Source of the DNA: an uncultured bacterium | GTDB lineage: Bacteria > Patescibacteriota > Minisyncoccia > UBA6257 > 2-01-FULL-56-20 | Direction: 5' to 3' | DNA: 64,000 nt | Assembly: GCA_963707865.1 (NCBI GenBank) | Contig: OY970175.1 | Span: 694,028 to 758,027 of the forward strand | Program-made: the position numbers and the translations under genes | Shown: in pieces, positions 3,112 to 59,634 of the stretch | Layout: every line of letters starts with the position of its first letter | Numbering within the stretch: position 1 is the stretch's first letter | Notes under the pieces: generated by a model | Databases searched by the model: none | What the model was told of the DNA's origin: nothing | The model's input: the letters and a program-made list of their open reading frames with translations, nothing else

Positions 3112-3119
3112 GTTCTTAT

Positions 3120-4212
3120 TTACTGGTGTTTCTTTTTAGAAAGAGAGGCTCCGATTAACTTATTAAGAATTTCCACGATTCTCAGTTCCCCTCCTTTGCC
3201 TCGATTTGATAGCATGTTGATCACGTCGTTCCTGTTGAACTGCGCCGGATTGACCTCTCGCAATGTTTTCCATAAATATTTTCCTAACGTCGAGGAGTCC
3301 AAGGTGTCTTCTTTTGCATTATATTTCAGCAACAACGGCAGTAAAAGACGCGGCGCCCAGATGCGCGATGCGAGCACCGAAAAATAGTAGAATCCGCTCT
3401 GGTAATGAATAAAGGGTATCCTCCGACCTTTATAAATCAAATGGCCTTCCTCATCGCTCGCAACCTTCGCCGCTGCCCGATTCGGCATATAGGCATCCAT
3501 CTGAAAAAAGCTCAATGGATTTTGGACATAATAGAAACCGCTCTTGACGATTGGGGGGGGCATTTTCCTGAAAAATTTTTCCGGAAGATATCAGATATTC
3601 AAGAAAATCCTGATCGCTCCCGAGAGGTTCCCGATAGAGCGAGGCGTTAAATTTCTCATGGTCATGAGCCCGGCACTCTTCTTTGGTTATGCCGCCGTTT
3701 TTTAAATATTCTTTTACGTTGCTGTTCAGTTTCCCTAGTTCGCGATCATAGGTCTCAAACCATCCCTTTCGGGAAATGGTAAGAAAACAAGGGCAATCAA
3801 GCGTCATGAAGGTGAGCCCCTTCGTTTTCTCCGCAAGTTCATTGAGGGAAATATAAAGCGCCATGTCGCTGTCAAGATGCCAAAATTGGCCCGCATCGTA
3901 TTTTTCCCGATAGTCCTTGAACGCTATCCAGCGCAGAAAGCAGTTTCTTTCATAGCGGCTGTAGTGCGCGTCTATATTCGGATATCTTCCGACAATGGCG
4001 CCGAATTCTTCCGTAAAATCGACAACGTCTATGCTCCTTTCGGACAGCTCCCGCAGATAGTTTTGCGAGAGGCTCTCAAAGCCCTCCAAAAGAAGCACCT
4101 TGATTCTTTCTTGGGAATGAAACCTCAAGAGGGAATCTCCAAGGGCCGTGAGAGGGATGTTTTCCTTAAATCGCCGCTCTCCCTTCAGGCACCACGCAGA
4201 GGTGTAAAACAT
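3120..4212 (-). pseudogene. Hypothetical glycan-cluster gene split by a frameshift at a G8/C8 homopolymer
   Basis: Two ORFs, 3451..4212 and 3120..3563, overlap by 113 nt in different frames. Both frames pass through the run of eight G at 3553-3560 (C8 on the coding strand). With seven C the frames fuse: ...FQENAPP-IVKSGFYYVQ... to give one protein of ~361 aa. Confidence 0.5.
3553..3560. repeat. G8 (C8 on coding strand) homopolymer tract at the frameshift point
   Basis: Seen directly: ttgggggggg cat at 3551-3563. Confidence 0.9.
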
Positions 4213-4282
4213 CGTTCATACTATCATGATATTTTTCCCTTTATAAAACAAGGGATTGGGGCGGCAGGGCGCGCAAGAACGC

Positions 4283-5659
4283 CTATTGCCGCCCTCGCAC
4301 GATCGCGAGGAGAGTGTCCATGTAATTCCCGGCATTATGATATTTTACCCAATTAAGCATGCATGCGTGTGCGCGCTTTTTTGCATCTTCTGAATTTTCC
4401 AGGTAAGAGAGCATCGCCCTCCCAAGAGACCCTTCGTCATCCAAGCGGAATAATACTCCTCCGCTCTTGTATTTCACAAACTCGCGTTCCATCCACGTAC
4501 CCACCGGGATAATCACTGATTTGCCGAAAGCCAGCGCTTCGCCGAAAATTCCCGATGTCTGCGCATGATAGCTTTCCGCGGTATAGGGAATCACGACGGC
4601 ATCCGCCCGCAGCAAAAGCCCGTAATATTCTTTCGTGTCCAATACCCGACCAATGATTTCCACCCCGCCCCCCATGGCAAGCAACTCCCTTTTCGCCTGC
4701 ATGACCCGCTCCCTCGGATACTTCAGGCAATTGGACTGAATCAAAAACCTTATCTGCCGGGATTTCCTGTTCGCGGTTACAAAATCGATCGCCGCAGGAA
4801 GCAAATGATATCCCTTCCTCTCGGCCGCATGTCCGATGTAAACAAAGGTTTTCGCATTCGTCGGCGATGCCGGCGCCTTGCGAGGCAGAACGGGGGTGTT
4901 CGGCATGGGCAGGACATGAACCTTGCGCCGGGCCATGGTTCTATACTCTTCCTCCAAGACATCGCTGTCGGTCGTAAAAAAAATCTTTCCGCTGCCCGGC
5001 AACCGCTCCAAAAGCTTTATCAAAAATTTGTAGAAATAGTACGATGGCATAGGCTTTTTAGGATGGCCATACTGCATCGTGGCATACCGAAACAGCAGCA
5101 CCAGCCAGGGCCGCTCGGCCAGCGCGAATGAGCGATACCAGAGATACAGCGCGACGAGCGAGGTCTGGCTCAAGGTATGGACCAGCACGATGTCATCGCT
5201 TGCAAAAGGCCCCTTGCCGACTTTTTTTAAATCGCTCAAAAACGACCGGTTCCCCGCAATCGCATCGAGGGCTCCGTTCAAATGCAAGAACTTATTTGCC
5301 AATTGGGGGATGCGCACCGACGAATAATATTCGCGCGGATCAATGGAAAACGCAGGAACGATGTTGAACTTTGTTCTTACTGCTTCGTCGTCCACGGGCG
5401 TACAATAAATGCTCGCTTCGTTTCCCCGCCCAACCCATTCTTCATATACCGACCTGGTGTATTCAAAATGATGTCCCACCTTGCTCGCGAATCCGTTGTC
5501 GAGAATATGGAGTTTCATGCTAGTGTTCTTTTGAGGAAAGGCTTCCTTTTGCGATCGCGATGGCCATTTGAAGTCCCTGCTCCAGTGAAATCTTTGGCTG
5601 CCATCCAAGGCACTTGACCGATGGTTCACTGAAGGGCGGCGGACCTTCTTTATCGCCAA
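4283..5659 (-). CDS. Glycosyltransferase, GT4 family
   Basis: The likely start is MKLHILDNGF at 5518, abutting the upstream gene end. The C-terminal GT4 motifs are ...ESYHAQTSGIFGEALAFGKSVIIP... Confidence 0.75.
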   Translation of the reverse strand: MAIKKVRRPSVNHRSSALDGSQRFHWSRDFKWPSRSQKEAFPQKNTSMKLHILDNGFASKVGHHFEYTRSVYEEWVGRGNEASIYCTPVDDEAVRTKFNIVPAFSIDPREYYSSVRIPQLANKFLHLNGALDAIAGNRSFLSDLKKVGKGPFASDDIVLVHTLSQTSLVALYLWYRSFALAERPWLVLLFRYATMQYGHPKKPMPSYYFYKFLIKLLERLPGSGKIFFTTDSDVLEEEYRTMARRKVHVLPMPNTPVLPRKAPASPTNAKTFVYIGHAAERKGYHLLPAAIDFVTANRKSRQIRFLIQSNCLKYPRERVMQAKRELLAMGGGVEIIGRVLDTKEYYGLLLRADAVVIPYTAESYHAQTSGIFGEALAFGKSVIIPVGTWMEREFVKYKSGGVLFRLDDEGSLGRAMLSYLENSEDAKKRAHACMLNWVKYHNAGNYMDTLLAIVRGRQ

Positions 5660-11091: not shown

Positions 11092-11745
11092 CTATTTTGT
11101 CTGAACGCCCCTGGAAGAGGTTGCTTGCGATTGCGAGAGCATTGATCCGAGTGCTGCCTGTACGCTCGCGTCGCTCGGCCAATTGGAAAGGATCTTCTGC
11201 CCGATGGCGATCGCGTCAGTCGTATCTCCCGAGGCCCGGTAGAGGCCAAAAAGACCGTAGAGCGTCTGCGGGCGGTTGGGGCCAAGCGCAAGCCCTTCCA
11301 GATAATACTGCTTCGCGGCATTGAGGAACGAAGTGTCCTCCGTCCCCGCGAACGCCAATTCGTTCATGGCTCCTTCAAGATAGACGTCTTGCCCGAAACT
11401 CATTCCCTTGCCGCGCGCGATGATGGGGTCGTAGTAACTTTGCACAAAGCCGACGATGGCGGCCACCGTTGACGTGGAACCGACTCCGCGCTGCAAGAGC
11501 CCGAGGACGCTGTTCGCTGTGTTTCGCACGAGCTCTTCCTGGCCGATGGGCGAAGGATAATCAAGCGGCGCGGCGAGACGGCCCTCAAAATCCTGGAGCG
11601 AGGTGGGCGGCTGGGACTGGAAACTTCCCAGCGTATTGATAAAGAGCTCGGCCTTCCGGAGCGGCAGATACGAACCGTATGCGGCGACGGCGAGAATGAT
11701 GATCGCGAGCGCCGTAGCGATAGTTCCCTTGACAGTCCTATCCAT
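11092..11745 (-). CDS. Membrane-anchored hypothetical protein (TPR-like C-terminal region)
   Basis: The likely start is MDRTVKGTIATALAIIILAVAAYG (one TM helix). It is helical and repeat-rich. It lies immediately downstream of the O-antigen-ligase-like gene. Confidence 0.4.
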   Translation of the reverse strand: MDRTVKGTIATALAIIILAVAAYGSYLPLRKAELFINTLGSFQSQPPTSLQDFEGRLAAPLDYPSPIGQEELVRNTANSVLGLLQRGVGSTSTVAAIVGFVQSYYDPIIARGKGMSFGQDVYLEGAMNELAFAGTEDTSFLNAAKQYYLEGLALGPNRPQTLYGLFGLYRASGDTTDAIAIGQKILSNWPSDASVQAALGSMLSQSQATSSRGVQTK

Positions 11746-13222
11746 GGTGTTGGCGTTGACTATGATTCGCATGTTGCTCGGATCTTTCGTAAAAATAATA
11801 GTAGGCGAATCCCAAGAAGAGGAACAGGCAAAGGTACATCGGGAGCACATCAAAGATAGCGACGCCCTGCACCAAGTAGGCCACCGGCATTGCAAGGAGC
11901 AAACCGCGCTCCACGATCCCCGACGATGCCGCCCGAACGGCCTCGCCTTTCTTTGAAAAGAATTCCCACGCGAAGACGAAAAAGATGGAGAGGTAGCTCA
12001 AGAGCCCGAGCGCGCCGGTCTCCGCGAGATAATCAAAGAAAACGCTGTGCGCGCGGTCAAACCACGTTTCGCTGTTTTGGCCCGGCGTGAAGAAACGCGG
12101 ATCAAAATACTTGTCGTAGACCGCGGTGAAGTTCTCCGGACCCCATCCGAGAACCGGCCGCTCCAAGAACCCTTTCCACGCTTCGCCCCAGACCCAGAAC
12201 CGCGTCTGGGCAGTTGAATCAGAAAAGCTGATCTGCAAAAGCCGTCCACCGGGCAGAGTTTGCACTAAATTGGAGTTCCGCAACGAATAAACGGTCCCGG
12301 CGAACGCGATAAGAAGGATAAGTGCAATGAGCGACCATTTTCGGAAAGAACCGCGGCCGGCAAAGATGAAATACAGCACGAGGGCAAATAATCCCGCACC
12401 GAAGCCGAGCTCGGCACCGCGCGTCTGGCTCAAATAAAAGAAAATAAAGAGTATGAAGATAAGCGCCCCATAGCCAACATGGGACCACATTTTCATTGCA
12501 CCCGCTGCTTTCCTTCTAATCCAAAGGTATCCGGCATAGAACATAGAAAACATGAGATACGGCGCGACGTACGCGGGATTTCCGAGCGAACCCTGGAAAC
12601 GCCCGTCTATAAGCTTGTGCCACCACCCCGAGGGCGCACCCCCGCTCGTATAGGGCCCAATGAACCCGGAGAATAGAAAGTTTCCCCCAAGGCCGTAGAG
12701 GATCATAAGAACCGCCGCCGCAAGCGAAAATTTGAAAATATTTTTCCATTCTTTTTCGGTGCGCAGCAAAAGCACGAGGAGCAGGAAGAAGAGATAGTAG
12801 TGGATCATCTGGAAACCGCCTTCCCCACGCTCATAGTTGGCCCAAAACGCCGCATGCACGTCATACGCGAAGAGGCATGCAAGGAGGAACATAAACACGA
12901 ACGCGGAGACGGCGATCACGAGCGGTTTCTTAAATGCCGTCCGGAGATGCGTCATCAACTCGCCTTCCCGCATCTCAAATGCCCATGCTAAAATGAAGAA
13001 AATAAGCGCAAGCTCAATCGCAAACCTGAAAAAATAATCCTTCCCGCCGATGAAGGGAAAAAATATTGAATTCATCACGATGACGACCGCGAACACCGCG
13101 ACGTAGAGATACCATTTCGCGATGCGGCGGAGAGAAATGCCAAAAAGTTTCGCCACGATGCCGAGAATGGGCAATGCAACGATGACCGCGAGCGCTTCTG
13201 GGTGGTTAATGATGGTGTCCAT
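11738..13222 (-). CDS. O-antigen ligase-like (Wzy_C) polytopic membrane protein
   Basis: 494 aa with about 10 TM segments. A loop carries ...YLSQTRGAELGF... typical of the O-antigen ligase/Wzy_C family. Confidence 0.65.
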   Translation of the reverse strand: MDTIINHPEALAVIVALPILGIVAKLFGISLRRIAKWYLYVAVFAVVIVMNSIFFPFIGGKDYFFRFAIELALIFFILAWAFEMREGELMTHLRTAFKKPLVIAVSAFVFMFLLACLFAYDVHAAFWANYERGEGGFQMIHYYLFFLLLVLLLRTEKEWKNIFKFSLAAAVLMILYGLGGNFLFSGFIGPYTSGGAPSGWWHKLIDGRFQGSLGNPAYVAPYLMFSMFYAGYLWIRRKAAGAMKMWSHVGYGALIFILFIFFYLSQTRGAELGFGAGLFALVLYFIFAGRGSFRKWSLIALILLIAFAGTVYSLRNSNLVQTLPGGRLLQISFSDSTAQTRFWVWGEAWKGFLERPVLGWGPENFTAVYDKYFDPRFFTPGQNSETWFDRAHSVFFDYLAETGALGLLSYLSIFFVFAWEFFSKKGEAVRAASSGIVERGLLLAMPVAYLVQGVAIFDVLPMYLCLFLFLGFAYYYFYERSEQHANHSQRQHHG

Positions 13223-13230
13223 AACAACGG

Positions 13231-14727
13231 CTAACGGGCGTATTCCACGGCCCGTATTTCCCGGATGACGTTCACTTTGATCTCTCCTGGATATTGTAAC
13301 TCGGATTGTATCCGGTTCGCAATCTCCCGCGCAAGTTCAAGCGCACGGAAGTCATCTATCTTTTCGGGCACCACGAACACGCGGAGTTCGCGGCCTGCGG
13401 AGATAGCATAGGCCTGCTTCACGCCCTGAAACTCCGAGGCAATCTTCTCAAGGTCGGCGAGACGCTTCACGTAATTCTCAAGCGTCCCGCGCCGCGCGCC
13501 GGGCCGCGCCGCCGAGAGCACATCCGCCGCAGCTACGATGAACGCTTCCGGCCGCGCATAGGGATAATCATCGTGGTGGGATTGCATCGCCTCAATAACA
13601 CGCTCGTCAATGTTGTACTTTTTGAGGAGTTTCATGCCGAGGTCTACGTGTGTCCCCTCCACCTCCTGATCAATTGCTTTGCCAATGTCGTGGAGAAACG
13701 CCCCTTTCTTCGCAACCTCCGCATTCAACCCGAGCTCGCGGGCCATCATTTCCGAAATATACGCCATCTCAACAGAATGCGTGAGTACGTTCTGGCCGAA
13801 GCTTGCCCGGAAATGCAGCCGGCCAACCATCTGTAAAATCTCCTTCGGCATGTCAAAAATGCCGAGGTCTTGCGCTGCCGCCTCGCCGATCTCCTGCGTG
13901 CGCTTACCGAGCTCTGTTTTCGCCTCCTCCACTTTCTCCTCAATCTTTGCGGGCTGGATGCGGCCGTCTTTGATCAAGCGCTCCAGCGCAATCCGCGCCA
14001 CTTCGCGGCGATAGGGATCAAATGAAGAAATAATGATCGCCTCCGGTGCCTCGTCAATGATGAATTCCACCCCCGTTGCGCGCTCCAAAGCCCTGATATT
14101 CCTCCCCTCGCGGCCAATGATCTTTCCCTTCAGGTCATCGTCGCTCAAAGGTAACAGCGTGGTCGTAATCTCCGACACGTGCGAGCGCGCATAGCGCTGG
14201 AGCGCGGTCGTTATAACTTCCGCCGTTTTCTTCTCGATCTCGTCTTGCCCTTCGCGGTCCATCTTCTGAACAAGCTGCGCCAAGTCCTGCGCCCGGTTCT
14301 CCTTCACGCGGCGTATAATTTCCTCCTTCGCCTCCTCCGCGGAAAGTTTCCCGATCTTTTCCAACTGTGATTGGACCTCGGCTTCCCCCGTTTTTAATTT
14401 CTCTTCGCGGGTGCGGAGTTTCCCCTCTTCGGCGGAAAGCTCCTCCGATCGCTTCTCAAACGTTTCCTCTTTTTTGAGGAGGCGGCTCTCCAACGCATCA
14501 ATTTCCTTCCTGTGCTCCTTTTCCTCGCTTTTGATATCAACCAAAAGCGAGGCGGCCTTGTCCTTTGCCTCTACGACAATCTCTTTCGCTTTGGCTTCCG
14601 CCTCAGCAAGATCCTTTTTTATTTTTTCTTCTACGTTCCCGAGCCGACTAGCCGCCCAATACCGACGGACGAAGTACCCTACTGCAATGCCAAAAACCGC
14701 CGCAACGAGCGGTATAAGTGCGTTCAT
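13231..14727 (-). CDS. rny: Ribonuclease Y
   Basis: N-terminal TM helix, then a long coiled-coil, then a KH domain (IIGREGRNIRALE) and an HD domain (LHDIGKA...). Confidence 0.9.
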   Translation of the reverse strand: MNALIPLVAAVFGIAVGYFVRRYWAASRLGNVEEKIKKDLAEAEAKAKEIVVEAKDKAASLLVDIKSEEKEHRKEIDALESRLLKKEETFEKRSEELSAEEGKLRTREEKLKTGEAEVQSQLEKIGKLSAEEAKEEIIRRVKENRAQDLAQLVQKMDREGQDEIEKKTAEVITTALQRYARSHVSEITTTLLPLSDDDLKGKIIGREGRNIRALERATGVEFIIDEAPEAIIISSFDPYRREVARIALERLIKDGRIQPAKIEEKVEEAKTELGKRTQEIGEAAAQDLGIFDMPKEILQMVGRLHFRASFGQNVLTHSVEMAYISEMMARELGLNAEVAKKGAFLHDIGKAIDQEVEGTHVDLGMKLLKKYNIDERVIEAMQSHHDDYPYARPEAFIVAAADVLSAARPGARRGTLENYVKRLADLEKIASEFQGVKQAYAISAGRELRVFVVPEKIDDFRALELAREIANRIQSELQYPGEIKVNVIREIRAVEYAR

Positions 14728-14803
14728 AGTTAATGTTATTGAAGTATTTCATTTTAGGGACTTTTAATTATTACTATAATACAATACCGCGCCAGGCAAA
14801 TAC

Positions 14804-14833
14804 TTGTCAATTAAATTCTGCCTTTGCTATAAT
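14804..14833 (+). promoter_or_regulatory. Candidate sigma70-like promoter in the rny/gpmI divergent intergenic region
   Basis: TTGTCA (14804-09), 18-nt spacer, TATAAT (14828-33). The intergenic region is AT-rich. Confidence 0.3.
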
Positions 14834-14957
14834 GGCAGTACAGCTGGTGGGAAGGGTTCCAGTCGCGCGCTGGACTGGCATAAAAGATCCGGAAACGGGT
14901 CTTTTGTGTTTTCGCACAGCGTTCGCGCGACCGCGCGCGCGCGGTTATAATAGAACC

Positions 14958-16493
14958 ATGGCAAAGAAAACAACCGTCCTCATTGTCCTTGACGGCTGGG
15001 GCATCGGCCACAACAGCGAATCAAATCCGATCTATGTCGTGAAGCCGCCGGTGTTTGAATGGCTAAGAAACAATTATCCAATGACGAGCTTGCAAGCGTC
15101 GGGGATCGCGATCGGACTCCCCTGGGGCGAGGTCGGCAACAGCGAGGTTGGGCATCTCACGCTCGGCGCCGGCAAAGTCCTTTATCAGTATTATCCGAAG
15201 ATTATGATGGCCATCCGGGACGGGACCTTTTTCCAAAATCCGGTGCTCAAGGCGGCCTGCGCTCACGCACGGGAGCATAATGCCGCGATAAATTTCCTTG
15301 GGCTTCTCACGAAAGCCAACGTGCATGCTGCACTTGATCATTTGAAGGCGCTCATCAAAATGGCTCAGGCGGAACAGGTACCGAAGATCAATCTGCATCT
15401 CTTTGCCGACGGGAAGGACAGCCCGCTGCACACTGTGGAAAGTTTCCTCGGCGAACTGCCGCGCGAATATCTTGCTTCCCTCATCGGCCGATACTACGCC
15501 ATGGACCGGAACGGAACCTGGCAGCTCACGGAAACCGCCTATGACACCGTGACGGGCCAAGCGGGGAGGGTGGTGGATGATCCCGCGCCCATCATTAAGG
15601 CTACCTACCAAGAAAGCGGCACGGAGGAATATCTCCCGCCGATGCGCTTTGGAGAAGACAAGAAAATTCAGGATGGCGACGCCGTCATTTTCTTCAATTA
15701 CCGCGAGGATAGCATCCGGCAGCTCGCGTCGTCATTCATATTGAAAGATTTTGACAAATTCCCGACGCTCAAGTTCCAAAATCTATACGTTGCAACGATG
15801 AGCCACTATGATGACACATTCAACGTCCCCGTCATCTACCCCGCCGACATTGTGGAAAATCCCATCGGAAAAGTGATCTCCGACCTAGGCATGGTCCAGC
15901 TTCGTCTTGCCGAAACTTATAAATATGCGCACGTTACCTATTTCTTCAACGGCCTCCGCGAGCCGCCGTTCAAAGGAGAATACCGCACGCTCATCCCTTC
16001 AAACTCCAGCCTCCACCCCGAGGAACATCCGGAAATGATGGCGGGGGCGGTCACCGACCGGCTCCTTGAGGCGATTCAAAACAAAACGTTTGACTTTATC
16101 CTCGTCAATTACGCCAATCCCGACACCATCGGCCACACCGCCGATTACAACGCGGCCCTGGAAGCCGTGCGGGTTATTGACCGAGAAATCGGCCGCATCC
16201 TCAAGGTCGCGATAAACCCAGACACCATCCTCGCTATCACAAGCGATCACGGCCACATTGAGGAAATGATCAGTCCCGTGACAGGGCTTCCCGAGAGCCA
16301 GCATGCATCAAGTCCCGTGCCGCTTCATTTTGTCGCAGACCAATACCGAGGCAGAAAATTCATCAACGCTGATATACTTGAAGCCGAAACGCTCGGCTCT
16401 CTCGCCGACGTCGCCCCCACCCTCCTTGAAGCAATGGGCATAGAAAAACCAGCCGAGATGACCGGCCGCAGCCTGCTGGACCAGATCGCATAG
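14958..16493 (+). CDS. gpmI: 2,3-bisphosphoglycerate-independent phosphoglycerate mutase
   Basis: Starts MAKKTTVLIVLDGWGIGHNSESNP. The family motifs are conserved throughout. The ORF track's upstream extension from 14733 is not supported. Confidence 0.9.
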   Translation: MAKKTTVLIVLDGWGIGHNSESNPIYVVKPPVFEWLRNNYPMTSLQASGIAIGLPWGEVGNSEVGHLTLGAGKVLYQYYPKIMMAIRDGTFFQNPVLKAACAHAREHNAAINFLGLLTKANVHAALDHLKALIKMAQAEQVPKINLHLFADGKDSPLHTVESFLGELPREYLASLIGRYYAMDRNGTWQLTETAYDTVTGQAGRVVDDPAPIIKATYQESGTEEYLPPMRFGEDKKIQDGDAVIFFNYREDSIRQLASSFILKDFDKFPTLKFQNLYVATMSHYDDTFNVPVIYPADIVENPIGKVISDLGMVQLRLAETYKYAHVTYFFNGLREPPFKGEYRTLIPSNSSLHPEEHPEMMAGAVTDRLLEAIQNKTFDFILVNYANPDTIGHTADYNAALEAVRVIDREIGRILKVAINPDTILAITSDHGHIEEMISPVTGLPESQHASSPVPLHFVADQYRGRKFINADILEAETLGSLADVAPTLLEAMGIEKPAEMTGRSLLDQIA

Positions 16494-19687: not shown

Positions 19688-19825
19688 AAAGTTTTTCCTC
19701 AAGTGAGTAATTTTGCCGCATTTTTGACCGGGGTAACTATATCACAAAACTTGGAATGCTGAATTTGCTGGCCTTTTGTATAAAATAGGTTCTCACATCG
19801 TCCAATCGCCGGAGCGGATAAAAAT

Positions 19826-44209: not shown

Positions 44210-44228
44210 TCTATCGGAGAAGTAGCTA

Positions 44229-44260
44229 AGACCCCGTCTTTATAAGGACGGGGTTTTAGT
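44229..44260 (+). terminator. Rho-independent terminator
   Basis: accccgtctttataaggacggggt + tttt. Confidence 0.5.
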
Positions 44261-44343
44261 ATTTTTGTAGTCACGCACATACCTGGAACCATAATGTGCC
44301 TAGTTACTGCACTTCGGGATGCTGGACTGTAACGATTCGCGGC

Positions 44344-44388
44344 GAGCGGCAAGAAAAAATTCTCGCAGGAAGAATTTTATTCTGGCTC
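44344..44388. repeat. 45-nt conserved hairpin motif, copy 1 (second copy at 59563-59607)
   Basis: gagcggcaagaaaaaattCTcgcaggaAGaattttattctggctc versus copy 2 ...ttGCcgctggaGCaatt... The two differences are compensatory, which preserves the stem. Confidence 0.6.
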
Positions 44389-44413
44389 TTCAAAAGGATA
44401 TTTGCTTCTTGCT

Positions 44414-44698
44414 GTGTGCTTATATGAGACTGCTCGAGAGTATTTTATCCAAAATTCCTGAATTTTGATACCCCTCTTACCCCTTCAAATACCCCTTCAA
44501 TTGCCCTGCATCGAATTGAAGGGGTAGCAAGTCCAGTTTGCTCTGCAAACTCTGATCTTTTCGACCCTCGTCTCTGAAAATCACAAGTCCTACTTCACTC
44601 CGCTAGACCCCCTCCGAAATGGTGTGCTCAGCCCCTCAGCCGCTCACTTACGTTCGGGCTTCGGGGCTTCGCGTATGGCGCGCCCAAATTCCTCCCCC
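44414..44698. repeat. 285-bp perfect inverted repeat, left copy (IR-L)
   Basis: Checked by hand. The reverse complement of 44414-44698 equals 47876-48160 base for base across all segments compared. Confidence 0.9.
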
Positions 44699-44958
44699 AA
44701 CCCCTCCTTTGAGGCGCGCTAAGAGGTGGTAGTTCCACGCTTTGCGACCCTATTCCTGTCCATAGGGCAATACCACGTCTTAGCGTGTCTGACCCTCCAG
44801 AAAGCGGTTTCTTGCCCTTGCCCCAGCCCTCCCATTGCGCGGGCAAGAGTCATTAAAACTCCCTTAAAAGAAGCTTGTCCTTTCAGCTTTGAATAGCGAT
44901 AATTTTGGGATGAAAATTATCAAAAAATCGAGTATGATTACCTTAAATCTTACTCGCC

Positions 44959-45768
44959 ATGAAACAATCAGCCACAACAAGGAAATTATCGCTCCCTCCG
45001 ACCAAGCGGGCCCCGAAAGCCCCAAAATTTTCCAAGAAATTTGTGAATAAAATCCTTTGCGGCGATGCCATCGAGCTTATGCGAGAGATACCCGACGGCG
45101 CGGTTGATCTCGTTGTAACTTCGCCGCCATATAACCTTAAAAATTCCACCGGCAACGGAATGAAGGATGGGCGCGGTGGGAAGTGGGCCAATGCCGCCCT
45201 GCAAAACGGATACAGCAATCACGACGACTGTATGCCGCACGACAAATATGTGAAGTGGCAGAGAGATTGCCTAAAGGAGATGATGCGAATTATCCCGGAG
45301 GATGGCGCGATTTTCTATAACCATAAATGGCGCGTTCAGGGAGGTTTGCTACAAGATCGGCAGGATATTGTCGGCGGATTCCCGGTTAGGCAGATCATCA
45401 TTTGGAAACGGAAGGGCGGCTTAAATTTTAACGCCGGATATTTCTTGCCGACTTATGAAGTCATTTATCTTATCGCCAAACCGAAATTCAAACTAGCGAC
45501 GAAAGCGAACGCGCACGGCGATGTTTGGGAGTTTACGCAGGAGATGAATAACGAACATCCGGCCGCTTTTCCCGTAGCTCTAATTGATCGGATAGTTTCC
45601 GCAACGGACGCTAAAACTATTCTCGACCCTTTCATGGGTTCGGGCACGACGGCACTTTCTGCGATAAATTTTAAGCGAGATTATATCGGCATTGATATTT
45701 CGCCAGAGTATTGCGAGATGGCCGAAAAGAGAATTAAGAAACATAAAGCTCAATCGCGGCTCTTATAA
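44959..45768 (+). CDS. Type II DNA methyltransferase, beta-class amino-MTase (SPPY; likely N4-cytosine, M.MvaI/M.BcnI-like)
   Basis: Motif IV DLVVTSPPYNL precedes motif I ILDPFMGSGTT (beta permutation, N6_N4_Mtase). It is immediately upstream of the REase candidate. Confidence 0.8.
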   Translation: MKQSATTRKLSLPPTKRAPKAPKFSKKFVNKILCGDAIELMREIPDGAVDLVVTSPPYNLKNSTGNGMKDGRGGKWANAALQNGYSNHDDCMPHDKYVKWQRDCLKEMMRIIPEDGAIFYNHKWRVQGGLLQDRQDIVGGFPVRQIIIWKRKGGLNFNAGYFLPTYEVIYLIAKPKFKLATKANAHGDVWEFTQEMNNEHPAAFPVALIDRIVSATDAKTILDPFMGSGTTALSAINFKRDYIGIDISPEYCEMAEKRIKKHKAQSRLL

Positions 45769-45770
45769 TC

Positions 45771-46568
45771 ATGGCAAAGAAACCCGTTATTTATACAAAA
45801 CCATCGTTGATAGCGAAGCTCAAAGAAATCGCCGCGATGGGTTGGATACCGAATGCCCGACGAGGCAACGCCGGAGGCGTAGGTAATACGCTTGAAGACC
45901 TGCTTGGCATAAGAGAAAATAACTTGCCGATTCCCAACGCCGCAGAGTGGGAACTGAAAGCGCAGAGAATAAATACCACGTCGCTCACAACTTTATTCCA
46001 TATCGAGCCATCGCCCCGCGCCATCGGTTTTGTGCCAAAAGTTTTGTTGCCATTGTACGGATGGCCCCACGAAGAAGCAGGGAAGAAATACGGAAAAAAC
46101 GAGATGAGTTTTCGCCAAACGATTCACGGCGGATCGCGGAGCGACAGAGGTTTTAAGGTTGTGATAGATCGCAAAGAGAAAAAGATTTTAATCTCGTTCG
46201 ACGCGAAAAGTGTTGATCCAAGACATAAGACCTGGCTCGAATTAGTTAAAAAGCGCGTGGGCTTAGGCGAACTTAATCCCCAACCATATTGGGGATTCGA
46301 TGATTTAGAACATAAAGCCGGAACGAAATTGCTTAACGCTTTTTACGTTCAGGCGGAGGTGAAGATAGAGCGCAAGAAGGAATTTTATAAATATACGAAA
46401 GTGATGATGCTACAAAAATTTAGTTTCGACGGATTTTTGAAAGCGTTGGAGGAGGGTAAGATACTCGTTGATTTCGATGCTCGCACAGGCCACAATCACG
46501 GAACGAAATTTAGAATGAGGCAGGATTGCTTGCCGATGCTTTACGAGAAAAACACCATCATTTTATGA
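45771..46568 (+). CDS. Type II restriction endonuclease, MvaI/BcnI-like (recalled family similarity)
   Basis: Starts 3 nt after the MTase stop. The pattern GGVGNTLEDLLGIRENN...EWELKAQR...LTTLFHIEP matches my recollection of the MvaI/BcnI family N-terminal region. Those enzymes pair with N4mC SPPY MTases. This is not database-verified. Confidence 0.5.
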   Translation: MAKKPVIYTKPSLIAKLKEIAAMGWIPNARRGNAGGVGNTLEDLLGIRENNLPIPNAAEWELKAQRINTTSLTTLFHIEPSPRAIGFVPKVLLPLYGWPHEEAGKKYGKNEMSFRQTIHGGSRSDRGFKVVIDRKEKKILISFDAKSVDPRHKTWLELVKKRVGLGELNPQPYWGFDDLEHKAGTKLLNAFYVQAEVKIERKKEFYKYTKVMMLQKFSFDGFLKALEEGKILVDFDARTGHNHGTKFRMRQDCLPMLYEKNTIIL

Positions 46569-47833
46569 AAACTAGGCTAGAGGCGAAAAAGGCTAGTTGG
46601 CTAAATAAGTACAAAGGAGATATCGAGCTAGAGCCTTTCTTTCAGAGAGGAACAGTTTGGAGCGATGATAAAAAACAGTATTTTATAGACTCGCTTTTAA
46701 AGGGCTGGGGAACGCCAAAAATTTTCCTTTGGGAAACGGGTAAAGATTCTTATGCCTGTTTAGATGGCAAACAGCGTTTGACCAGTCTATTTAAATTTAT
46801 GGCCGACAGACTGCCATTAAAAGAAGATTATTCTACTGGATATGGCGGTAAAAAATATACCGAGTTACCAGTTAGCGTCCAAGATGCGATCGACGATTAT
46901 GAATTTTCGGTAGAAATATTAGAAGCCAAAGACGACGAAGTGATAGAACTCTATAAGAGGTTACAAGGGGGCACTCCTTTAAATTTCGGAGAGAAGTTAT
47001 TTGCGATGTCGGGAAATATGAACGATTTTATTAAACGCCGGCTAAACACAAAAACATTCTTTAAGGAAAGAGTATCGCTTCCAGATACTAGATACTCGCA
47101 CTATGCTGTTTGCGCGCAATTATGCTTATTGAGCATAAAAGGCGCAAAAGAAGACTTGAAGCTAAAGAACCTAGAGAAGTTTTTTAGAGATTATCGCGGC
47201 TTCAATACCAAGAGCCCTGAAGCAGATAAAATTTTCGACGTTATAAAACATCTTGAAAAGGCGTTCCCTAACAAGAGCGATCCGGCCCTACGAAATAGGG
47301 CGAATGTCGTATCTATATTTCATCTAATAGCAGATATATCTGCGCGTGGCGATATTTCCGGGAGAGAAGAAGAAATAGGTGCGTTCTTTAGAAAATTTGT
47401 GAAGGATATTCAGAAAGAGTTTGATAAAAAGCCCGAGAACCGCGATCCCGCCATATTGAGTTATCAATCGGCGGTTACGCAAGGAGCAGACAAAATTAAG
47501 TCTATTAATATCAGGCACGGCGTTTTATTAAAAAAACTTGAGTCGAAAAATAAATTTTTCTATGGCCTTCTTCATCCAGCTTCTCCGCAGGACAAATTTA
47601 TGAAAATGTATAACGACGCACGAAAGAAGCTAAGGATCACCACTGTTGGTGGATTTGATGCGTGGCTTATTAGTAATAAAGGCCTGTCAGATATAGGGTG
47701 CTCGAAAGCTCGTGCTGGAACGGAAACTTTTATAGGACATATTCGCAATTGTATCCATTATTCTGAACATGGAACTGTTCCAGTAAAGGACTTAGATAGG
47801 GCCATCAAAATTTTGAAAGAGATATTAAGGTAA
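46565..47833 (+). CDS. DUF262-domain protein (GmrSD / ParB-like nuclease family; candidate type IV restriction or defence nuclease)
   Basis: ATG overlaps the REase stop (ATGA). The N-terminal DUF262 hallmark is ...YACLDGKQRLTSLFKF... (the DGQQR motif). The C-terminal region is compatible with a DUF1524/His-Me-like domain. Confidence 0.65.
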   Translation: MKTRLEAKKASWLNKYKGDIELEPFFQRGTVWSDDKKQYFIDSLLKGWGTPKIFLWETGKDSYACLDGKQRLTSLFKFMADRLPLKEDYSTGYGGKKYTELPVSVQDAIDDYEFSVEILEAKDDEVIELYKRLQGGTPLNFGEKLFAMSGNMNDFIKRRLNTKTFFKERVSLPDTRYSHYAVCAQLCLLSIKGAKEDLKLKNLEKFFRDYRGFNTKSPEADKIFDVIKHLEKAFPNKSDPALRNRANVVSIFHLIADISARGDISGREEEIGAFFRKFVKDIQKEFDKKPENRDPAILSYQSAVTQGADKIKSINIRHGVLLKKLESKNKFFYGLLHPASPQDKFMKMYNDARKKLRITTVGGFDAWLISNKGLSDIGCSKARAGTETFIGHIRNCIHYSEHGTVPVKDLDRAIKILKEILR

Positions 47834-47875
47834 AAATTTTTGCTCCCGGCCATGCGGCCGCGAGCTATTTTTTGT

Positions 47876-48160
47876 GGGGGAGGAATTTGGGCGCGCCATA
47901 CGCGAAGCCCCGAAGCCCGAACGTAAGTGAGCGGCTGAGGGGCTGAGCACACCATTTCGGAGGGGGTCTAGCGGAGTGAAGTAGGACTTGTGATTTTCAG
48001 AGACGAGGGTCGAAAAGATCAGAGTTTGCAGAGCAAACTGGACTTGCTACCCCTTCAATTCGATGCAGGGCAATTGAAGGGGTATTTGAAGGGGTAAGAG
48101 GGGTATCAAAATTCAGGAATTTTGGATAAAATACTCTCGAGCAGTCTCATATAAGCACAC
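47876..48160. repeat. 285-bp perfect inverted repeat, right copy (IR-R)
   Basis: Reverse complement of IR-L (44414-44698). The two copies flank the MTase-REase-DUF262 cassette. Confidence 0.9.
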
Positions 48161-48328
48161 CAAGATAAGATTTTCCTCAACTCTACCAATTTTTTCGCGC
48201 GCCGCGCGGAGCGCGGCATAATGCGGCACGGGGGTAAATTCGATTTCTCTATTCCTCAGAGATACGTTCGAGCCGAAAATTTTTTGTACGGATGTCTTTT
48301 TGAGGGAGAGGGTGGGGGTAAGAGAGAT
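48158..48328. repeat. 171-bp inverted duplicate of the tRNA-Arg 3' tip plus the recombinase 3' end
   Basis: The reverse complement of 51003-51173 equals 48158-48328 (checked by hand). The copy begins with CACCA, which is the tRNA-Arg 3' end. It overlaps the outer end of IR-R by 3 nt. Confidence 0.85.
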
Positions 48329-48333
48329 AGCTA

Positions 48334-49416
48334 TTAAAGCTCCTCGGATTTTTTAAGACGAAGGCGAGCCAGTTCTCTAAGGTCAAATTCTTTCTCCGAG
48401 CCTCTTATCCGGCCGCCGATTAATCCAAGATTGTAGGTTATTTCCTCGCTCGTGTTGCGCCAGTTAGTATCCTCAAGCGTTTTGTCGATTAACTTTTTGA
48501 CCTCAATGGGTGCCTTTTCCTTATCGCGTCCGGTTAAGGTGTCTTGAGCGGTGTATGGGAGCATCACCGATCCCCTGAATATTTCCGGCTTGCCGAATAC
48601 CAATTCCGTAAGCCCGTTCTGTTGAAAAACAGGAGTGAGTAGCCCCTGAACTTGGGCGACGCCTAGCACTTTTATCTTCTTGACCGCCTCGTCGATTGCG
48701 ATGTTCTCCGTTGAAAATTCATTTATATAATCCTTGCCGCCTATTTCCCAATTCTCCCTACTGTGATAGTGGCCTGAAACGTATTCTTTGCCTTCTTTCT
48801 CGGTCATGCAGAATATTTCCCTGTCTTTGAGAAAATTTTTATCAACCTTTGGCTTCTTCAGTTTTTCGTCTAGGTCGAGTATGTCATCCTCGTGATGGCC
48901 GCAACTTCCGCAAGTATATGAATCAATGAGCTTGTTTCCTTCGCGGCTGGATTTTTTCTCAAGCGTTGCCTTACACTTTGGGCACGATCGCGGTTCCGGT
49001 CGGTATTCTTCGCCGTCTTGGAAAAATTTGCGTACTTCGCGGCAGTTTTCGCATTTGAAATAGAAAAGGACTCGCTCCTTTTTGCCGTAGCCTTCCATAG
49101 TTTTCTCCACCATATCCATGTCGGAGCGGCATACGAGGCATAGCGCATTGAATTTTGGCCGAGCCTTTTCCAGTTTCTGATTGTATTCTCCAATAGCTTT
49201 TCTGCGATCCCTGATAGCCTCAAATTTATTCGCATACCGCTCGCCGCGCATGAAGTAGAGCGAGACCTTTCCGAACAGAACCCACATCGGGTCATTTTTA
49301 TTCTCCTTGATAGTCTTATCCATTCTCGCCACAAATTTGCGGCACTCCTCGACTGTTTCGCGGTCGTATTCGTCGCTATAAGCGGTGTCGTTCTTATCCG
49401 TTTCTTCGAGGTTCAT
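48334..49416 (-). CDS. Hypothetical protein with two tandem CxxC...CxxC zinc ribbons (function unknown)
   Basis: CLVCRS..(22)..CENCRE and CPKCKA..(20)..CGSCGH, then a ~190-aa C-terminal domain with no recognised family. Co-oriented with the XRE gene directly upstream. Confidence 0.45.
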   Translation of the reverse strand: MNLEETDKNDTAYSDEYDRETVEECRKFVARMDKTIKENKNDPMWVLFGKVSLYFMRGERYANKFEAIRDRRKAIGEYNQKLEKARPKFNALCLVCRSDMDMVEKTMEGYGKKERVLFYFKCENCREVRKFFQDGEEYRPEPRSCPKCKATLEKKSSREGNKLIDSYTCGSCGHHEDDILDLDEKLKKPKVDKNFLKDREIFCMTEKEGKEYVSGHYHSRENWEIGGKDYINEFSTENIAIDEAVKKIKVLGVAQVQGLLTPVFQQNGLTELVFGKPEIFRGSVMLPYTAQDTLTGRDKEKAPIEVKKLIDKTLEDTNWRNTSEEITYNLGLIGGRIRGSEKEFDLRELARLRLKKSEEL

Positions 49417-49422
49417 CTTCGA

Positions 49423-49626
49423 TTACTTGAGCAGGTTATTAACGGAAACGCCTAGAGCCTTAGCAATCTTCTCGACGTTTTTAAGAGAAATATTCCATAT
49501 GCCGCGCTCGATCTGGCTAATATAGGTCGGGTGGACGTTCAAAAGCTTGGCGAGGTCGCCCTGCGACATCCCCTTGTCGAGGCGGAGCCGCTTCATTCTC
49601 TTACCGAATTTGATAGATATATCCAT
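49423..49626 (-). CDS. XRE-family helix-turn-helix transcriptional regulator
   Basis: ...KRLRLDKGMSQGDLAKLLNVHPTYISQIERG... is the classic Cro/CI-type HTH. 67 aa. Confidence 0.8.
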   Translation of the reverse strand: MDISIKFGKRMKRLRLDKGMSQGDLAKLLNVHPTYISQIERGIWNISLKNVEKIAKALGVSVNNLLK

Positions 49627-49706
49627 GCCTATAAGTGCTCTTGTAAATATGGTAACAGGTGCGTTACTATTGTTCTATATAGAGGTAGGCCTCTATAATA
49701 AAAGAT

Positions 49707-51182
49707 ATGCCAAATTATTTTCTCTACGTCAGAAAATCGACCGACGTTGAAGATAAGCAAGTCCGCTCCATCGAAGATCAGCTTGCCGTTCTGCGTACTC
49801 TAGCTAGCACCGAGAAACTTCATATCATTGAGGAGTTTGTCGAGAAGCAGTCCGCGAAAGTGCCCGGCCGGCCAGTTTTTGACGAGATGCTCCGCCGCAT
49901 CGAAAAGGGCGAAGCCTCCGGCATCGTCTGTTGGAAGTTAGATCGTCTCGCTCGCAATCCGGTGGACGGAGGGCAGATAAGTTGGTTCTTGCAGAGGGGC
50001 ATCATCCAGCATATCCAGACTTATGAAAAGAGCTATCGTCCCGCGGATAACGTCATTATGATGAGCGTCGAGTTCGGGATGGCGAACCAGTATATTTTAG
50101 ATTTGAGCGCGAACACCAAACGCGGCCTGATGGAGAAGGTGAAAAGAGGCGAATATCCGTCGCTCGCCCCGATCGGATATATCAACGATCCGCGAAGCAA
50201 AACGGTAATCCTTGATCAGAAAAAGGCTAGCATCATTCGCGGCGCGTTTGAACTCTACGCCGAGGGCAATTCCCGTCTTGGGGACGTATCTGTGTTTTTC
50301 GCAAAGCAAAATTTCTTCTCCAAAATCGGCAACACCTATCATCGGGACAGGATCACCCGTATTCTCTCCAATCCTTTCTATTGCGGCTTTTTCCGCTATG
50401 CCGGAGAGATACACGAAGGCAACCACGAGCCGATCGTTTCAAAGCAACTGTTCGATAAGGTGCAGGATATCCTAAAGAAGAAAGGGCGGCCGCATCACAA
50501 GCAGAAGAACGACCCTCGCCCGTTTTGCGGCCTGTTCCGGTGCGGCGAGTGCGGAATGATGGTAACGGCCGAAGTCCAAAGAAAGCACGCCTATTATCGG
50601 TGCACGAAGAAGTCCTCCATACGCTGTTCCCAGCCCTATATTAGAGAGGAGGTTTTGGATAAACAGCTATCGGATATTCTCAAAAATTTTGCCATGCCCT
50701 CGGCATGGGCGGAGAATTTATCGCACAGAGCGGACAAAGATAGCGAGGAGACCACCCGTTCCGTGGCGGCTTTTGTTCAAGAGTTGCGGTCTCAAATATC
50801 GGACATCAACCGCAAGCTCGAGCGGCTTCTTGAGACGTATTTAGAGCAAGATATCGAACGGGACGTGTACCGAGAGGAGAAGGCAAAACTCCTCTCGTCC
50901 AAGAAGTCGCTTACGGAGCAAATCGCCCGTCTTGAACAAAAGCAAAACGCATGGCTCGAACACTTCCGAGACTGGCTGAAAGACGCACAGAATCTGAACG
51001 AAATCTCTCTTACCCCCACCCTCTCCCTCAAAAAGACATCCGTACAAAAAATTTTCGGCTCGAACGTATCTCTGAGGAATAGAGAAATCGAATTTACCCC
51101 CGTGCCGCATTATGCCGCGCTCCGCGCGGCGCGCGAAAAAATTGGTAGAGTTGAGGAAAATCTTATCTTGGTGCCCTCGTGA
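49707..51182 (+). CDS. Large serine recombinase (integrase/transposase type)
   Basis: N-terminal resolvase catalytic domain (YVRKSTDVEDKQVRSIEDQ..., WKLDRLARN), then the recombinase domain, a zinc ribbon (CGLFRCGECG...YYRC) and a coiled-coil. The last 14 nt of the ORF overlap the tRNA-Arg 3' end. Confidence 0.85.
   Translation: MPNYFLYVRKSTDVEDKQVRSIEDQLAVLRTLASTEKLHIIEEFVEKQSAKVPGRPVFDEMLRRIEKGEASGIVCWKLDRLARNPVDGGQISWFLQRGIIQHIQTYEKSYRPADNVIMMSVEFGMANQYILDLSANTKRGLMEKVKRGEYPSLAPIGYINDPRSKTVILDQKKASIIRGAFELYAEGNSRLGDVSVFFAKQNFFSKIGNTYHRDRITRILSNPFYCGFFRYAGEIHEGNHEPIVSKQLFDKVQDILKKKGRPHHKQKNDPRPFCGLFRCGECGMMVTAEVQRKHAYYRCTKKSSIRCSQPYIREEVLDKQLSDILKNFAMPSAWAENLSHRADKDSEETTRSVAAFVQELRSQISDINRKLERLLETYLEQDIERDVYREEKAKLLSSKKSLTEQIARLEQKQNAWLEHFRDWLKDAQNLNEISLTPTLSLKKTSVQKIFGSNVSLRNREIEFTPVPHYAALRAAREKIGRVEENLILVPS
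51003..51173. repeat. 171-bp repeat, right copy (recombinase 3' end through tRNA-Arg CACCA tip)
   Basis: Inverted partner of 48158-48328. Confidence 0.85.
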
Positions 51183-51243
51183 GGAATTGAACCTCAATCT
51201 TCTCCTTCGGAGGGAGACGTCCTATCCGTTGAACTACGAGGGC
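51169..51243 (-). tRNA. tRNA-Arg (anticodon CCG), CCA encoded
   Basis: Minus-strand read GCCCTCGTAGTTCAACGGATAGGACGTCTCCCTCCGAAGGAGAAGATTGAGGTTCAATTCCTCACGAGGGCACCA. Acceptor 7 bp, anticodon loop CUCCGAA, T-arm TGAGG-TTCAATT-CCTCA. Confidence 0.8.
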
Positions 51244-59473: not shown

Positions 59474-59634
59474 GGGCAGCACTGGCAGGGAGGTTTACGG
59501 CGGATCGCGCAGGCCCGCTCAGCTTGGTCCGAAAACTTTTGCGTGTTTTCGGTAAGCGGGCCGAGCGGCAAGAAAAAATTGCCGCTGGAGCAATTTTATT
59601 CTGGTTCCGTAAACCTCCCTGTCAGTGCTGCCCC
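59474..59634. promoter_or_regulatory. Large structured element between the HK stop and pyrG start (27-bp outer stem enclosing ~106 nt with internal hairpins)
   Basis: Outer arms 59474-59500 and 59607-59633 are complementary with one G.T wobble. Inner hairpins are ccgaaaac-ttttgcgt-gttttcgg and copy 2 of the 45-nt motif (59563-59607). Confidence 0.4.

Follow-up and report, generated by a model that had tools for sequence, protein, structure and literature searches.

A putative serine-integrase defence island at the 3' end of a patescibacterial tRNA-Arg gene, with an inverted copy of its own predicted attachment junction

Elements of the staphylococcal cassette chromosome (SCC) group, such as SCCmec with its Ccr recombinases, are small cargo islands without transfer or replication genes of their own that employ a large serine recombinase and occupy the 3' terminus of a conserved housekeeping gene, with a variable cargo that often consists of defence or restriction-modification genes. 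The same features are found in a segment of about 6.8 kb (positions 44414-51173) within a 64,000-nt stretch of DNA from an uncultured bacterium of the Patescibacteria (contig OY970175.1 of assembly GCA_963707865.1, positions 694,028 to 758,027 of the forward strand; hereafter, the window), and this segment appears, as far as its sequence can tell, to be a mobile defence island integrated at a tRNA-Arg(CCG) gene. Its relatives point to a widespread family of cargo islands in Patescibacteria (Candidate Phyla Radiation, CPR) that would be driven by a large serine integrase. However, SCC elements use rlmH as the target and a CcrA/CcrB pair as the enzyme, whereas the family described here has one recombinase and is found at any tRNA 3' end. 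Moreover, the window island has long repeat pairs and an internal inverted attP-like site, neither of which is, to our knowledge, present in SCC elements.

A comparison with the phage-type integrases (A118/LI, SPbeta, Bxb1, and phiC31) shows the same set of catalytic, recombinase, and zinc-ribbon domains, with a putative coiled coil, and also a short core common to the junctions. Nonetheless, those enzymes act on one specific attB, usually in a protein-coding gene, whereas the island carries no phage genes, has an asymmetric attP-like site, and shows no evident directionality factor. In the case of TnpX (Tn4451), TndX (Tn5397), and the multi-targeting large serine recombinases, a circular intermediate is inserted at many sites by means of a short motif and a matching core dinucleotide, as proposed here, but their targets are short degenerate motifs (GA core) and not the end of a structured-RNA gene, and we know of no T-arm mimic or internal inverted attP for serine transposases of this type. 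The yeast 2-micron plasmid, with FLP/FRT sites inside 599-bp inverted repeats, has two flippable unique segments like the circle predicted for the excised island. In that system the enzyme is a tyrosine recombinase, the plasmid is autonomous, and inversion serves copy-number amplification; for the island, neither a replication function nor a free circle was found (IMG/VR, contig circularity). The Hin/Gin/Cin/Pin switches also combine a serine recombinase with segments bounded by inverted repeats, and a serine invertase is sometimes located beside defence genes, for example PinQ (PMC12529663). However, Hin/Gin-type systems have an enzyme of ~190 residues with a C-terminal helix-turn-helix (HTH), sites of ~26 bp, an enhancer, and an exchange of promoters or gene ends, none of which applies to the 491-residue enzyme of the island.

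The tycheposons of Prochlorococcus are likewise cargo-carrying islands at tRNA genes in streamlined genomes that lack classical transfer systems. Tyrosine recombinases account for 910 of 937 cases among them, every integrase clade keeps to a single tRNA out of seven, direct partial-tRNA repeats are left behind, and many carry replication genes (bioRxiv 10.1101/2020.12.28.424599). Unlike tycheposons, the family described here has a serine enzyme, many tRNAs are occupied by a single lineage, the stretch shared with the tRNA is only 3-5 nt, and inverted repeats are the hallmark. In a broader comparison, tRNA genes were used by 4.9% of serine integrases and 44.5% of tyrosine integrases, the use by serine enzymes being called previously unreported and rare (PMC7192596). 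By membership tests, the island would be neither an SCC element, a tycheposon, a Hin/Gin switch, nor a DDE-type transposon with terminal inverted repeats (TIR), and its enzyme has the catalytic, recombinase, and zinc-ribbon domains expected of a large serine recombinase. Literature searches found no description of this serine-integrase family at tRNA ends. An initial annotation of the window, made from the sequence alone, did not recognise a described element type. The family is apparently undescribed and falls within the serine-integrase genomic islands.

The arrangement of repeats in the window is the starting point of this reading (Table 1). The repeat finder detected two inverted pairs, both 100% identical, A with A' and B' with B, which are placed in series and abut each other with 3 nt (CAC) in common; no further copies of either repeat are present in the window. 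Perfect repeats of 286 and 171 nt cannot have arisen by chance. They split the island into an integrase module (B' to B) and a passenger module (A to A'). Arm B takes in just five nt of the tRNA, positions 72-76 (CACCA), and the outer ~55 nt of arm A hold a motif that mimics a tRNA T-arm (44409-44462, minus strand; hidden Markov model (HMM) E 1.5e-5), which in arm A' reads on the plus strand (48112-48166). With junctions marked by a slash, the two outer ones read flank/GTG/A and B/GTG/tRNA, in direct orientation and with the element half-sites facing inward, and the same is seen in six other elements. On the other side, the middle 454 bp, once reverse-complemented, correspond to B followed by A, being exactly the junction that circularisation of 44414-51173 would produce. 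The island would then have three junctions, with tRNA/B as attL, A/flank as attR, and A'/B' as an inverted internal attP-like site; we infer the attP role of the last from its identity, as an exact inverted copy, with the predicted circle junction. The CAC common to A' and B' would be the crossover core. The island-free tRNA-Arg locus is predicted to read ...GGGCAC/AGCAAGAAGC, and this reconstructed empty site (...GGGCAC/AGCAAG) resembles the unoccupied tRNA-Leu (...GGCAC/AAAA) and tRNA-Ser (...TCCAC/GGGG) genes of the window. In such unoccupied genes, N72-A73-C74 is followed by sequence other than CCA, which explains a minimal common core of 3 nt.

Much of this layout was already in the initial annotation, all of whose listed features are present, although the SdrD-like surface-protein ORF at the far end may or may not be truncated. 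The gene order, from tRNA-Arg(CCG) through a recombinase whose last 14 nt overlap the tRNA 3' end (its stop codon lying inside the tRNA gene), an XRE-type regulator, and a zinc-ribbon protein to the cargo, was recovered at the same coordinates, as were the lower GC content of the cassette (0.38-0.50 inside versus 0.52-0.60 outside) and a terminator beyond the left repeat, which the terminator scan scores as strong and places at 44225-44260 in the host flank. For the repeats, the description holds with some corrections: the pair given as 285 bp is indeed perfect and has 286 nt; the two perfect pairs are serial and abutting with their shared CAC rather than nested; and the inverted copy of the tRNA tip plus recombinase 3' end includes just those five nt of tRNA. 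Also, the element described as a conserved 45-nt hairpin motif is a repeat, but a chromosomal one of 43 nt, with copies at 44343-44385 and 59562-59604 (88% identity) that lie ~15 kb apart, the second being outside the island. It was found in none of the 80 related loci described below, and probably represents an intergenic or regulatory repeat of the host.

Table 1. Positions of the island, its repeat arms, its genes, and its flanks in the window.
Feature	Positions	Strand	Basis
Host flank, formerly downstream of tRNA-Arg (predicted right half of the empty site)	44229-44413		Terminator, repeat copy, reconstructed site
Arm A (left repeat); junction with flank is the putative attR	44414-44699		286 nt identical to A'; motif HMM match
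Type II N4/N6 DNA methyltransferase, cargo module 1	44959-45768	+	Pfam N6_N4_Mtase 6e-40; PADLOC MTase_II 1e-121
MvaI/BcnI-family restriction endonuclease, cargo module 1	45771-46568	+	Pfam MvaI_BcnI 6e-66; PADLOC REase_II 9e-81
DUF262/GmrSD_N-only protein, cargo module 1	46526-47833	+	Pfam GmrSD_N 3e-16; PADLOC NsnA 6e-27
Arm A', inverted copy of A; outer half of the internal attP-like site	47875-48160		Repeat finder, motif HMM
CAC common to A' and B', corresponding to tRNA positions 72-74	48158-48160		Repeat finder
Arm B', inverted recombinase 3' end plus 5-nt tRNA tip; inner half of the internal attP-like site	48158-48328		Repeat finder
360-residue protein, weak CxxC zinc-ribbon match, cargo module 2	48334-49416	-	Pfam, PADLOC, NCBIfam; exact protein on Logan contig L082
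XRE/Cro-type HTH protein, divergent from recombinase	49423-49626	-	Pfam HTH_3 2e-17; PADLOC 'control protein' 1e-22
Divergent promoter/operator region; palindrome CTATATAGAGG..CCTCTATAATA; TATAAT ~10 nt before recombinase ATG	49627-49706		Sequence reading
Large serine recombinase (integrase), 491 residues	49707-51182	+	Pfam Resolvase + Recombinase + Zn_ribbon_recom
Arm B; recombinase C-terminal coding region, GC-rich hairpin, tip; tRNA junction is the putative attL	51003-51173		Repeat finder
tRNA-Arg(CCG), predicted integration target	51169-51243	-	ARAGORN; Rfam 65.7 bits

A scan of one genome per species for relatives of the recombinase returned 80 loci (numbered with the prefix L) at 50-64% identity, essentially all of them in metagenome-assembled genomes of Patescibacteria. 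In about 47 of the 80, self-comparison revealed an inverted repeat of the B and B' type, with one arm at the recombinase 3' end and the other 0.3-10 kb upstream, the arms being 110-170 nt long and 84-100% identical across the family. In many independent loci the two arms agree fully over their outer ~110 nt, and this stretch is followed, in the distal arm only, by an A-rich insertion of 9-11 nt right after GGTTC; beyond the insertion there are ~45 similar nt, and then the similarity ends. The insertion is seen in L004, L006, L014, L015, L017, L019, L035, L043, and L050, and the arms of the window do not have it. B' was also considered as an alternative C-terminal exon of the recombinase, an idea that was rejected because the insertion breaks the reading frame in many loci. 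The full double-repeat layout occurs in six other loci (L009, L021, L022, L030, L051, and L053), L009 being a complete chromosome of 829 kb and L021 a contig of 613 kb, with the architecture present on contigs of 518-613 kb. In all seven double-repeat elements, the window included, the middle arms overlap by 3-5 nt, always at tRNA positions 72-74. The initial annotation had proposed that homologues with the same genes but lacking the repeats, at loci without a tRNA, would argue against an integrative island; the opposite was found, as the homologues keep the repeats and the tRNA and vary the genes. Moreover, two contigs of an independent k=31 assembly of run ERR10755942 (Logan contigs) agree with the window at 100% identity and break off inside the arms, 16 nt into A' and ~30 nt into B', as would be expected of a true repeat collapsing in the assembly graph. 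Numerous short-read contigs of relatives stop 50-140 nt past the distal arm.

The choice of target is also shared by the family. A convergent tRNA gene abuts or overlaps the recombinase stop codon in 47 of the 61 informative loci (those that extend 100 nt or more past the recombinase), comprising 17 anticodon species, and in several of the remaining loci the junction shows a T-arm and acceptor resembling those of a tRNA, without an ARAGORN call. For example, L038 and L060 have a tRNA-Asn-like T-arm and acceptor at the recombinase 3' junction with no ARAGORN call; group I introns are known in patescibacterial tRNA-Asn genes and are a possible cause of missed calls (PMC13011429). In 19 of 32 loci, tRNA position 72 is where the repeat begins, so that the element contributes the final acceptor base and the discriminator and, in most cases, CC(A). 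According to the neighbour-joining tree from which the family relationships were taken, near-identical recombinases with identical tips are found at different tRNAs, namely Arg and Val (L001 and L002), Arg and Leu (L035 and L034), Tyr and Ile (L061 and L068), and Gln and Asn (L014 and L017), which implies that each lineage uses a class of tRNAs and not a single gene. Also, the tip class tracks the discriminator base, CACCA being found with A73 and AGCC with G73. This comparison shows that the target is the generic 3' end of a tRNA gene (T-arm GGTTCGA plus acceptor) and no tRNA in particular; in the window, the T-arm of tRNA-Arg(CCG), GGTTCAA, lies ~20 nt from the element junction. A separate case is L043, where a tRNA-Val-like 3' half abuts the element (4305-4530) and a complete tRNA-Val(tac) is found 150 nt further; this half may have come from duplication of part of the target or may be left over from an earlier event.

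Immediately outside the distal arm, ~45 loci carry a conserved motif of ~55 nt (..ttctg.t.AAAATAGGTTCGAgc..ggt.GTATA.a.. up to the junction) that includes the tRNA T-loop sequence GGTTCGA, its copies having been located with the motif HMM. It is found next to B' in >90% of loci, where random flank never occurs. When the junctions are anchored on tRNA position 76, GGTTC starts at column 26 in tRNA/B and at column 22 in motif/B', a constant outward shift of 4 nt. In the A118 model of Rutherford and Van Duyne, the zinc-ribbon-domain motif is reportedly displaced by ~5 bp between attP and attB half-sites, and the shift observed here is similar. In the double-repeat elements a second, inverted copy of the motif forms the far end of the element and is joined to unrelated flank after the 3-5-nt core. 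Elsewhere in the window there is a lone weak match to the motif, TATAAAATAGGTTCTCACATCGTCC, at 19765-19802 on the plus strand (E 0.007, no adjacent tRNA), which may have been left by another element or may have arisen by chance.

The comparison of sister elements delimits what is inherited together. DNA homology between them is restricted to two blocks, one comprising the A' end and motif joined to B' plus ~100-260 nt, and the other the promoter, recombinase, and B; the genes between these blocks are unrelated even for recombinases that are 85-94% identical at the DNA level. In three pairs of loci at different tRNAs (L014/L017, L061/L068, and L020/L075), the motif and the A' block have been inherited along with the integrase. 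Moreover, L014 at tRNA-Gln and L017 at tRNA-Asn additionally have 1.7 kb of the passenger side in common, which indicates that the composite moved and not the recombinase module alone. Regarding orientation, at tRNA-Leu(taa) the recombinase 3' end adjoins the tRNA in L036 and L065, whereas in L039 it is the distal arm that adjoins it, and in the sister bin L029, whose arm is identical, the recombinase 3' end is joined to the motif. This implies that both orientations of the recombinase module exist. The recombinase 3' end is joined to the motif in ~8 loci, and the B to A junction sequence, besides being known as the internal inverted copy, is present in loci such as L027, L029, and L071. The last of these, which holds only mobile and defence genes, is a candidate free form.

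We put at roughly 60% the probability of the whole account, in which the composite is a mobile serine-integrase island at tRNA 3' ends and its repeats are the arms of attL, attR, and an inverted internal attP; for its descriptive part, read from the comparison of loci, our confidence is much higher. In this respect the comparative evidence supports the core of the initial reading, namely that a defence island able to move and integrate is located at a tRNA and contains its attachment region in a second, inverted copy. According to this account, the divergent XRE repressor would keep the integrase off. When active, the integrase would recognise the T-arm and integrate at tRNA 3' ends, with crossover within positions 72-74. 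Recombination of attL with attR would excise the composite as a circle with two inverted attP sites, and this circle could re-insert at another tRNA with a matching core. The two orientation isomers would arise from the use of one attP or the other, or from inversion between repeats, while gene conversion would hold the outer ~110 or more nt of the arms identical. Cargo, as the comparison of sister elements shows, is exchanged between the block of A' end and motif with B' and the block of promoter, integrase, and B.

Several observations weigh against this account. An intact attP in a chromosome with ~40 tRNA genes looks hazardous and has no evident benefit. In the consensus, the motif and the B tip show no dyad symmetry with each other, the attP thus being asymmetric, which is unusual for serine integrases. 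Also, the two isomers occur at a ratio of ~47 to at most 8 and not at the 1:1 expected if both attP sites were equally used. In L001, L002, and L018 the recombinase abuts a tRNA, yet no distal arm or motif was found within 7-10 kb upstream; this leaves a much larger integrase module, or the lack of an internal site, as explanations for these loci. The exact predicted attB pattern had 0 matches in the metagenome contig collection, and the two relatives of the flanking transporter that were found lie on contigs that end at the tRNA and show no empty site. A free circular form was not found either, with no circular contig among the whole contigs tested and no relatives in IMG/VR. Finally, no gene but the integrase is conserved between sister elements and cargo 2 is variable, a comparison that does not by itself prove the absence of a recombination directionality factor, and the divergent small HTH gene that is common in the family encodes a protein of the repressor type; the account thus has no conserved factor that would license excision by attL and attR.

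A more general scheme, possible in our view and put forward tentatively, would describe the sites by a grammar of two letters, with 'T' half-sites (a tRNA T-arm plus acceptor, or its mimic) and 'E' half-sites (the tips of the integrase module), so that modules alternate as mutual landing sites. One integrase with no conserved directionality factor would then reversibly insert, excise, flip, and exchange modules, building integron-like defence arrays at any tRNA. If this is true, mimicry in DNA of the T-loop, a universal feature of an RNA gene, would make this a naturally 'generic-target' integrase.

The main alternative, rather unlikely on our estimate, is a scheme of reciprocal sites in which only the integrase module (B' to B) is mobile, in the manner of an insertion sequence, through a palindromic attP made of two B tips, its halves being the long perfect TIR of the module. 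Its attB would consist of two convergent T-arm half-sites (the tRNA end and the mimic at the ends of the passenger module), all junctions would be hybrids of the attL/attR type, and arrays would grow by alternate insertion of both kinds of module. The dyad symmetry of serine integrases would be restored in this way, since module 2 lies between inverted GGTTCGA half-sites and its ends are perfect repeats. Also, in L057, L059, L071, and L075 the integrase module is located between two motifs with no tRNA, and L059 has at least six module junctions in alternating orientation, including two perfect 40-bp palindromes (tip-hairpin-tip) flanked by motifs. These palindromes look like miniature modules. 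However, the motif and A' block accompany the integrase at different tRNAs, as expected of a composite that moves together, and B' lies beside the motif in >90% of loci and beside random flank in none. Moreover, the free circle of the integrase module would contain a perfect palindrome of 220-340 bp, which is normally unstable. As a further description of L059 (JBBTPY010000001.1), four A-type repeats of ~400 nt alternate in 2200-5600 and 11490-15444, and the 40-bp palindromes read CACCATCAAAAAACCGGCCATAGCCGGTTTTTTGATGGTG.

If the composite is instead a switch that inverts in situ, the integrase would act as an invertase that phase-varies the defence genes or itself, mobility being secondary. 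We consider this improbable. Each module is bounded by long perfect repeats, both orientations of the integrase module are found at the same tRNA species, and the genes of cargo 1 point to the internal site in three of the double-repeat elements and in the opposite direction in three more; the suggestion of the initial annotation that the island may be invertible gains some support from the orientations at tRNA-Leu(taa). Nonetheless, the restriction-modification operon has its promoter-like sites in its own unique leader (44875-44938), within the segment from A to A', and a flip would keep the promoter attached; switching of this operon by inversion was rejected for this reason. The arms being identical, both states would have the same local junctions, with no gene gained or lost. 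Moreover, cargo is unrelated among members, the same type of element at different tRNAs shows transposition-like mobility, and the enzyme is a large serine integrase and not a small invertase of the Hin/Gin type.

Very improbable is that the segment from A to A' is an unrelated, non-autonomous cargo transposon of the DDE type with long TIR that landed beside a tRNA island, as the initial annotation had allowed. Perfect terminal inverted repeats of 286 bp around a cargo with no transposase would agree with it. However, there is no target-site duplication (the flanks being ..ttgct/A and A'/ccaag..), the termini carry the half-site motif of the family integrase, the abutment of A' on B' with a common core is kept in seven elements, the window has no other copy of A, the segment has no transposase, and the A block is co-inherited with the integrase module, which tells against this proposal. 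The least probable explanation is an assembly artefact, a fold-back or chimeric contig or the collapse of integrated and circular forms, which the initial annotation had asked to exclude first and for which the 100% identity of both repeat pairs and their meeting at a 3-nt microhomology, common at chimeric junctions, would speak; it is excluded on the grounds that the architecture recurs in many independent assemblies from different assemblers, in the complete chromosome of L009 and the contigs of 518-613 kb, that an independent assembly of ERR10755942 (k=31) yields exactly the same inner junctions, that the common core of 3-5 nt always falls at tRNA positions 72-74, and that many arms are imperfect (84-93%), an outer identity combined with a conserved indel in independent loci being a pattern that a fold-back cannot yield.

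Under the preferred account of a mobile island at tRNA 3' ends, a whole clade of serine integrases would use tRNA genes in a systematic and generic way, apparently through the universal T-arm and a mimic of its own, which would be a new solution to target choice. It would also be a candidate tool, as an integrase whose landing site already occurs many times per genome. In CPR bacteria no conjugative systems are known and mobile elements are poorly described, and the family is apparently a major carrier of restriction-modification and other defence genes among them. The conserved internal inverted attP and double repeats are not explained by the current model of unidirectional serine integrases and raise the question of how directionality is controlled. 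From a practical point of view, the repeats break short-read CPR assemblies at tRNA genes, many contigs ending exactly there.

Proteins were compared with Pfam, PADLOC, NCBIfam, and the Protein Data Bank (PDB). In the recombinase, the Pfam Resolvase domain (2.7e-19) covers residues 5-149, with the motif YVRKST placing the catalytic serine at position 11, and is followed by PF07508 (4.6e-14) and PF13408 (3.2e-10). Residues 177-332 align with the C-terminal domain of A118 integrase (PDB codes: 4kis and 6dnw), and the SPbeta integrase was also matched. The region ~350-430 is rich in heptads and looks like a coiled coil by eye, the matches to SMC-like coiled coils being weak. The top NCBIfam matches are CcrB (E 5e-31), XisF, and CcrA, all far under the family cut-offs (for CcrB, 108 bits against 900; for CcrA, 73 against 700). 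No Phage_integrase (tyrosine recombinase) domain was detected by Pfam in the element, and Rfam found no RNA family in the repeat arms. A phage origin of the island was also considered and was dropped after a scan of IMG/VR with the recombinase returned no relatives. Searches for exact copies of the recombinase, DUF262, and flanking-transporter proteins gave zero matches, likely explained by differing start-codon calls or by contigs truncated at the repeats.

The XRE-type HTH protein is a probable repressor of the integrase, given its divergent orientation and the palindrome in the 80-nt spacer. Across the family, a TATAAT box usually precedes the recombinase ATG by 5-10 nt, and a small gene in divergent orientation is often present. 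In cargo module 1, the adjacent methyltransferase and endonuclease genes are spanned by the PADLOC model PDLC03305 (fused MTase-REase), and the exact MvaI/BcnI endonuclease protein was also found on an independent Logan contig. Next to them, the DUF262/GmrSD_N protein, whose gene start is placed at 46565 by the gene caller on an independent contig, is a candidate type-IV-like or NsnA-like defence gene; no C-terminal nuclease domain of a GmrSD-type protein was detected in it by Pfam or PADLOC. On the other hand, the zinc-ribbon protein of cargo module 2 is not conserved in the family, and cargo 2 is unrelated between sister elements. Most of the cargo of the family is related to defence, including GmrSD, HEPN/DUF5343, type III restriction-modification, an OLD-like ATPase with Dcm/NgoPII, reverse transcriptase, SNF2/PLD with Eco57I-like or type ISP enzymes, and AbiEii. 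Oxidoreductases take the place of defence genes in one element.

A special recombination site upstream of the recombinase start was also considered as an explanation of the sharp cargo boundaries, and only a near-leaderless TATAAT promoter and divergent repressor genes were found there. On the host side of the tRNA, relatives of the flanking amino-acid transporter (65-70% identity) keep their synteny with tRNA-Arg(ccg) in L083 (1343-1410) and at the right end of L084, and in both cases the contig ends at the tRNA 3' end or beside it, which points to repeats or polymorphism at this site in other populations. Finally, a conserved inverted repeat, AAATGGCCGTCTCGG ... CCGGGGCGGCCATTT, is located directly upstream of the recombinase ATG in ten loci (L022, L025, L027, L028, L037, L042, L044, L049, L053, and L063), where it may be an operator or an RNA element.

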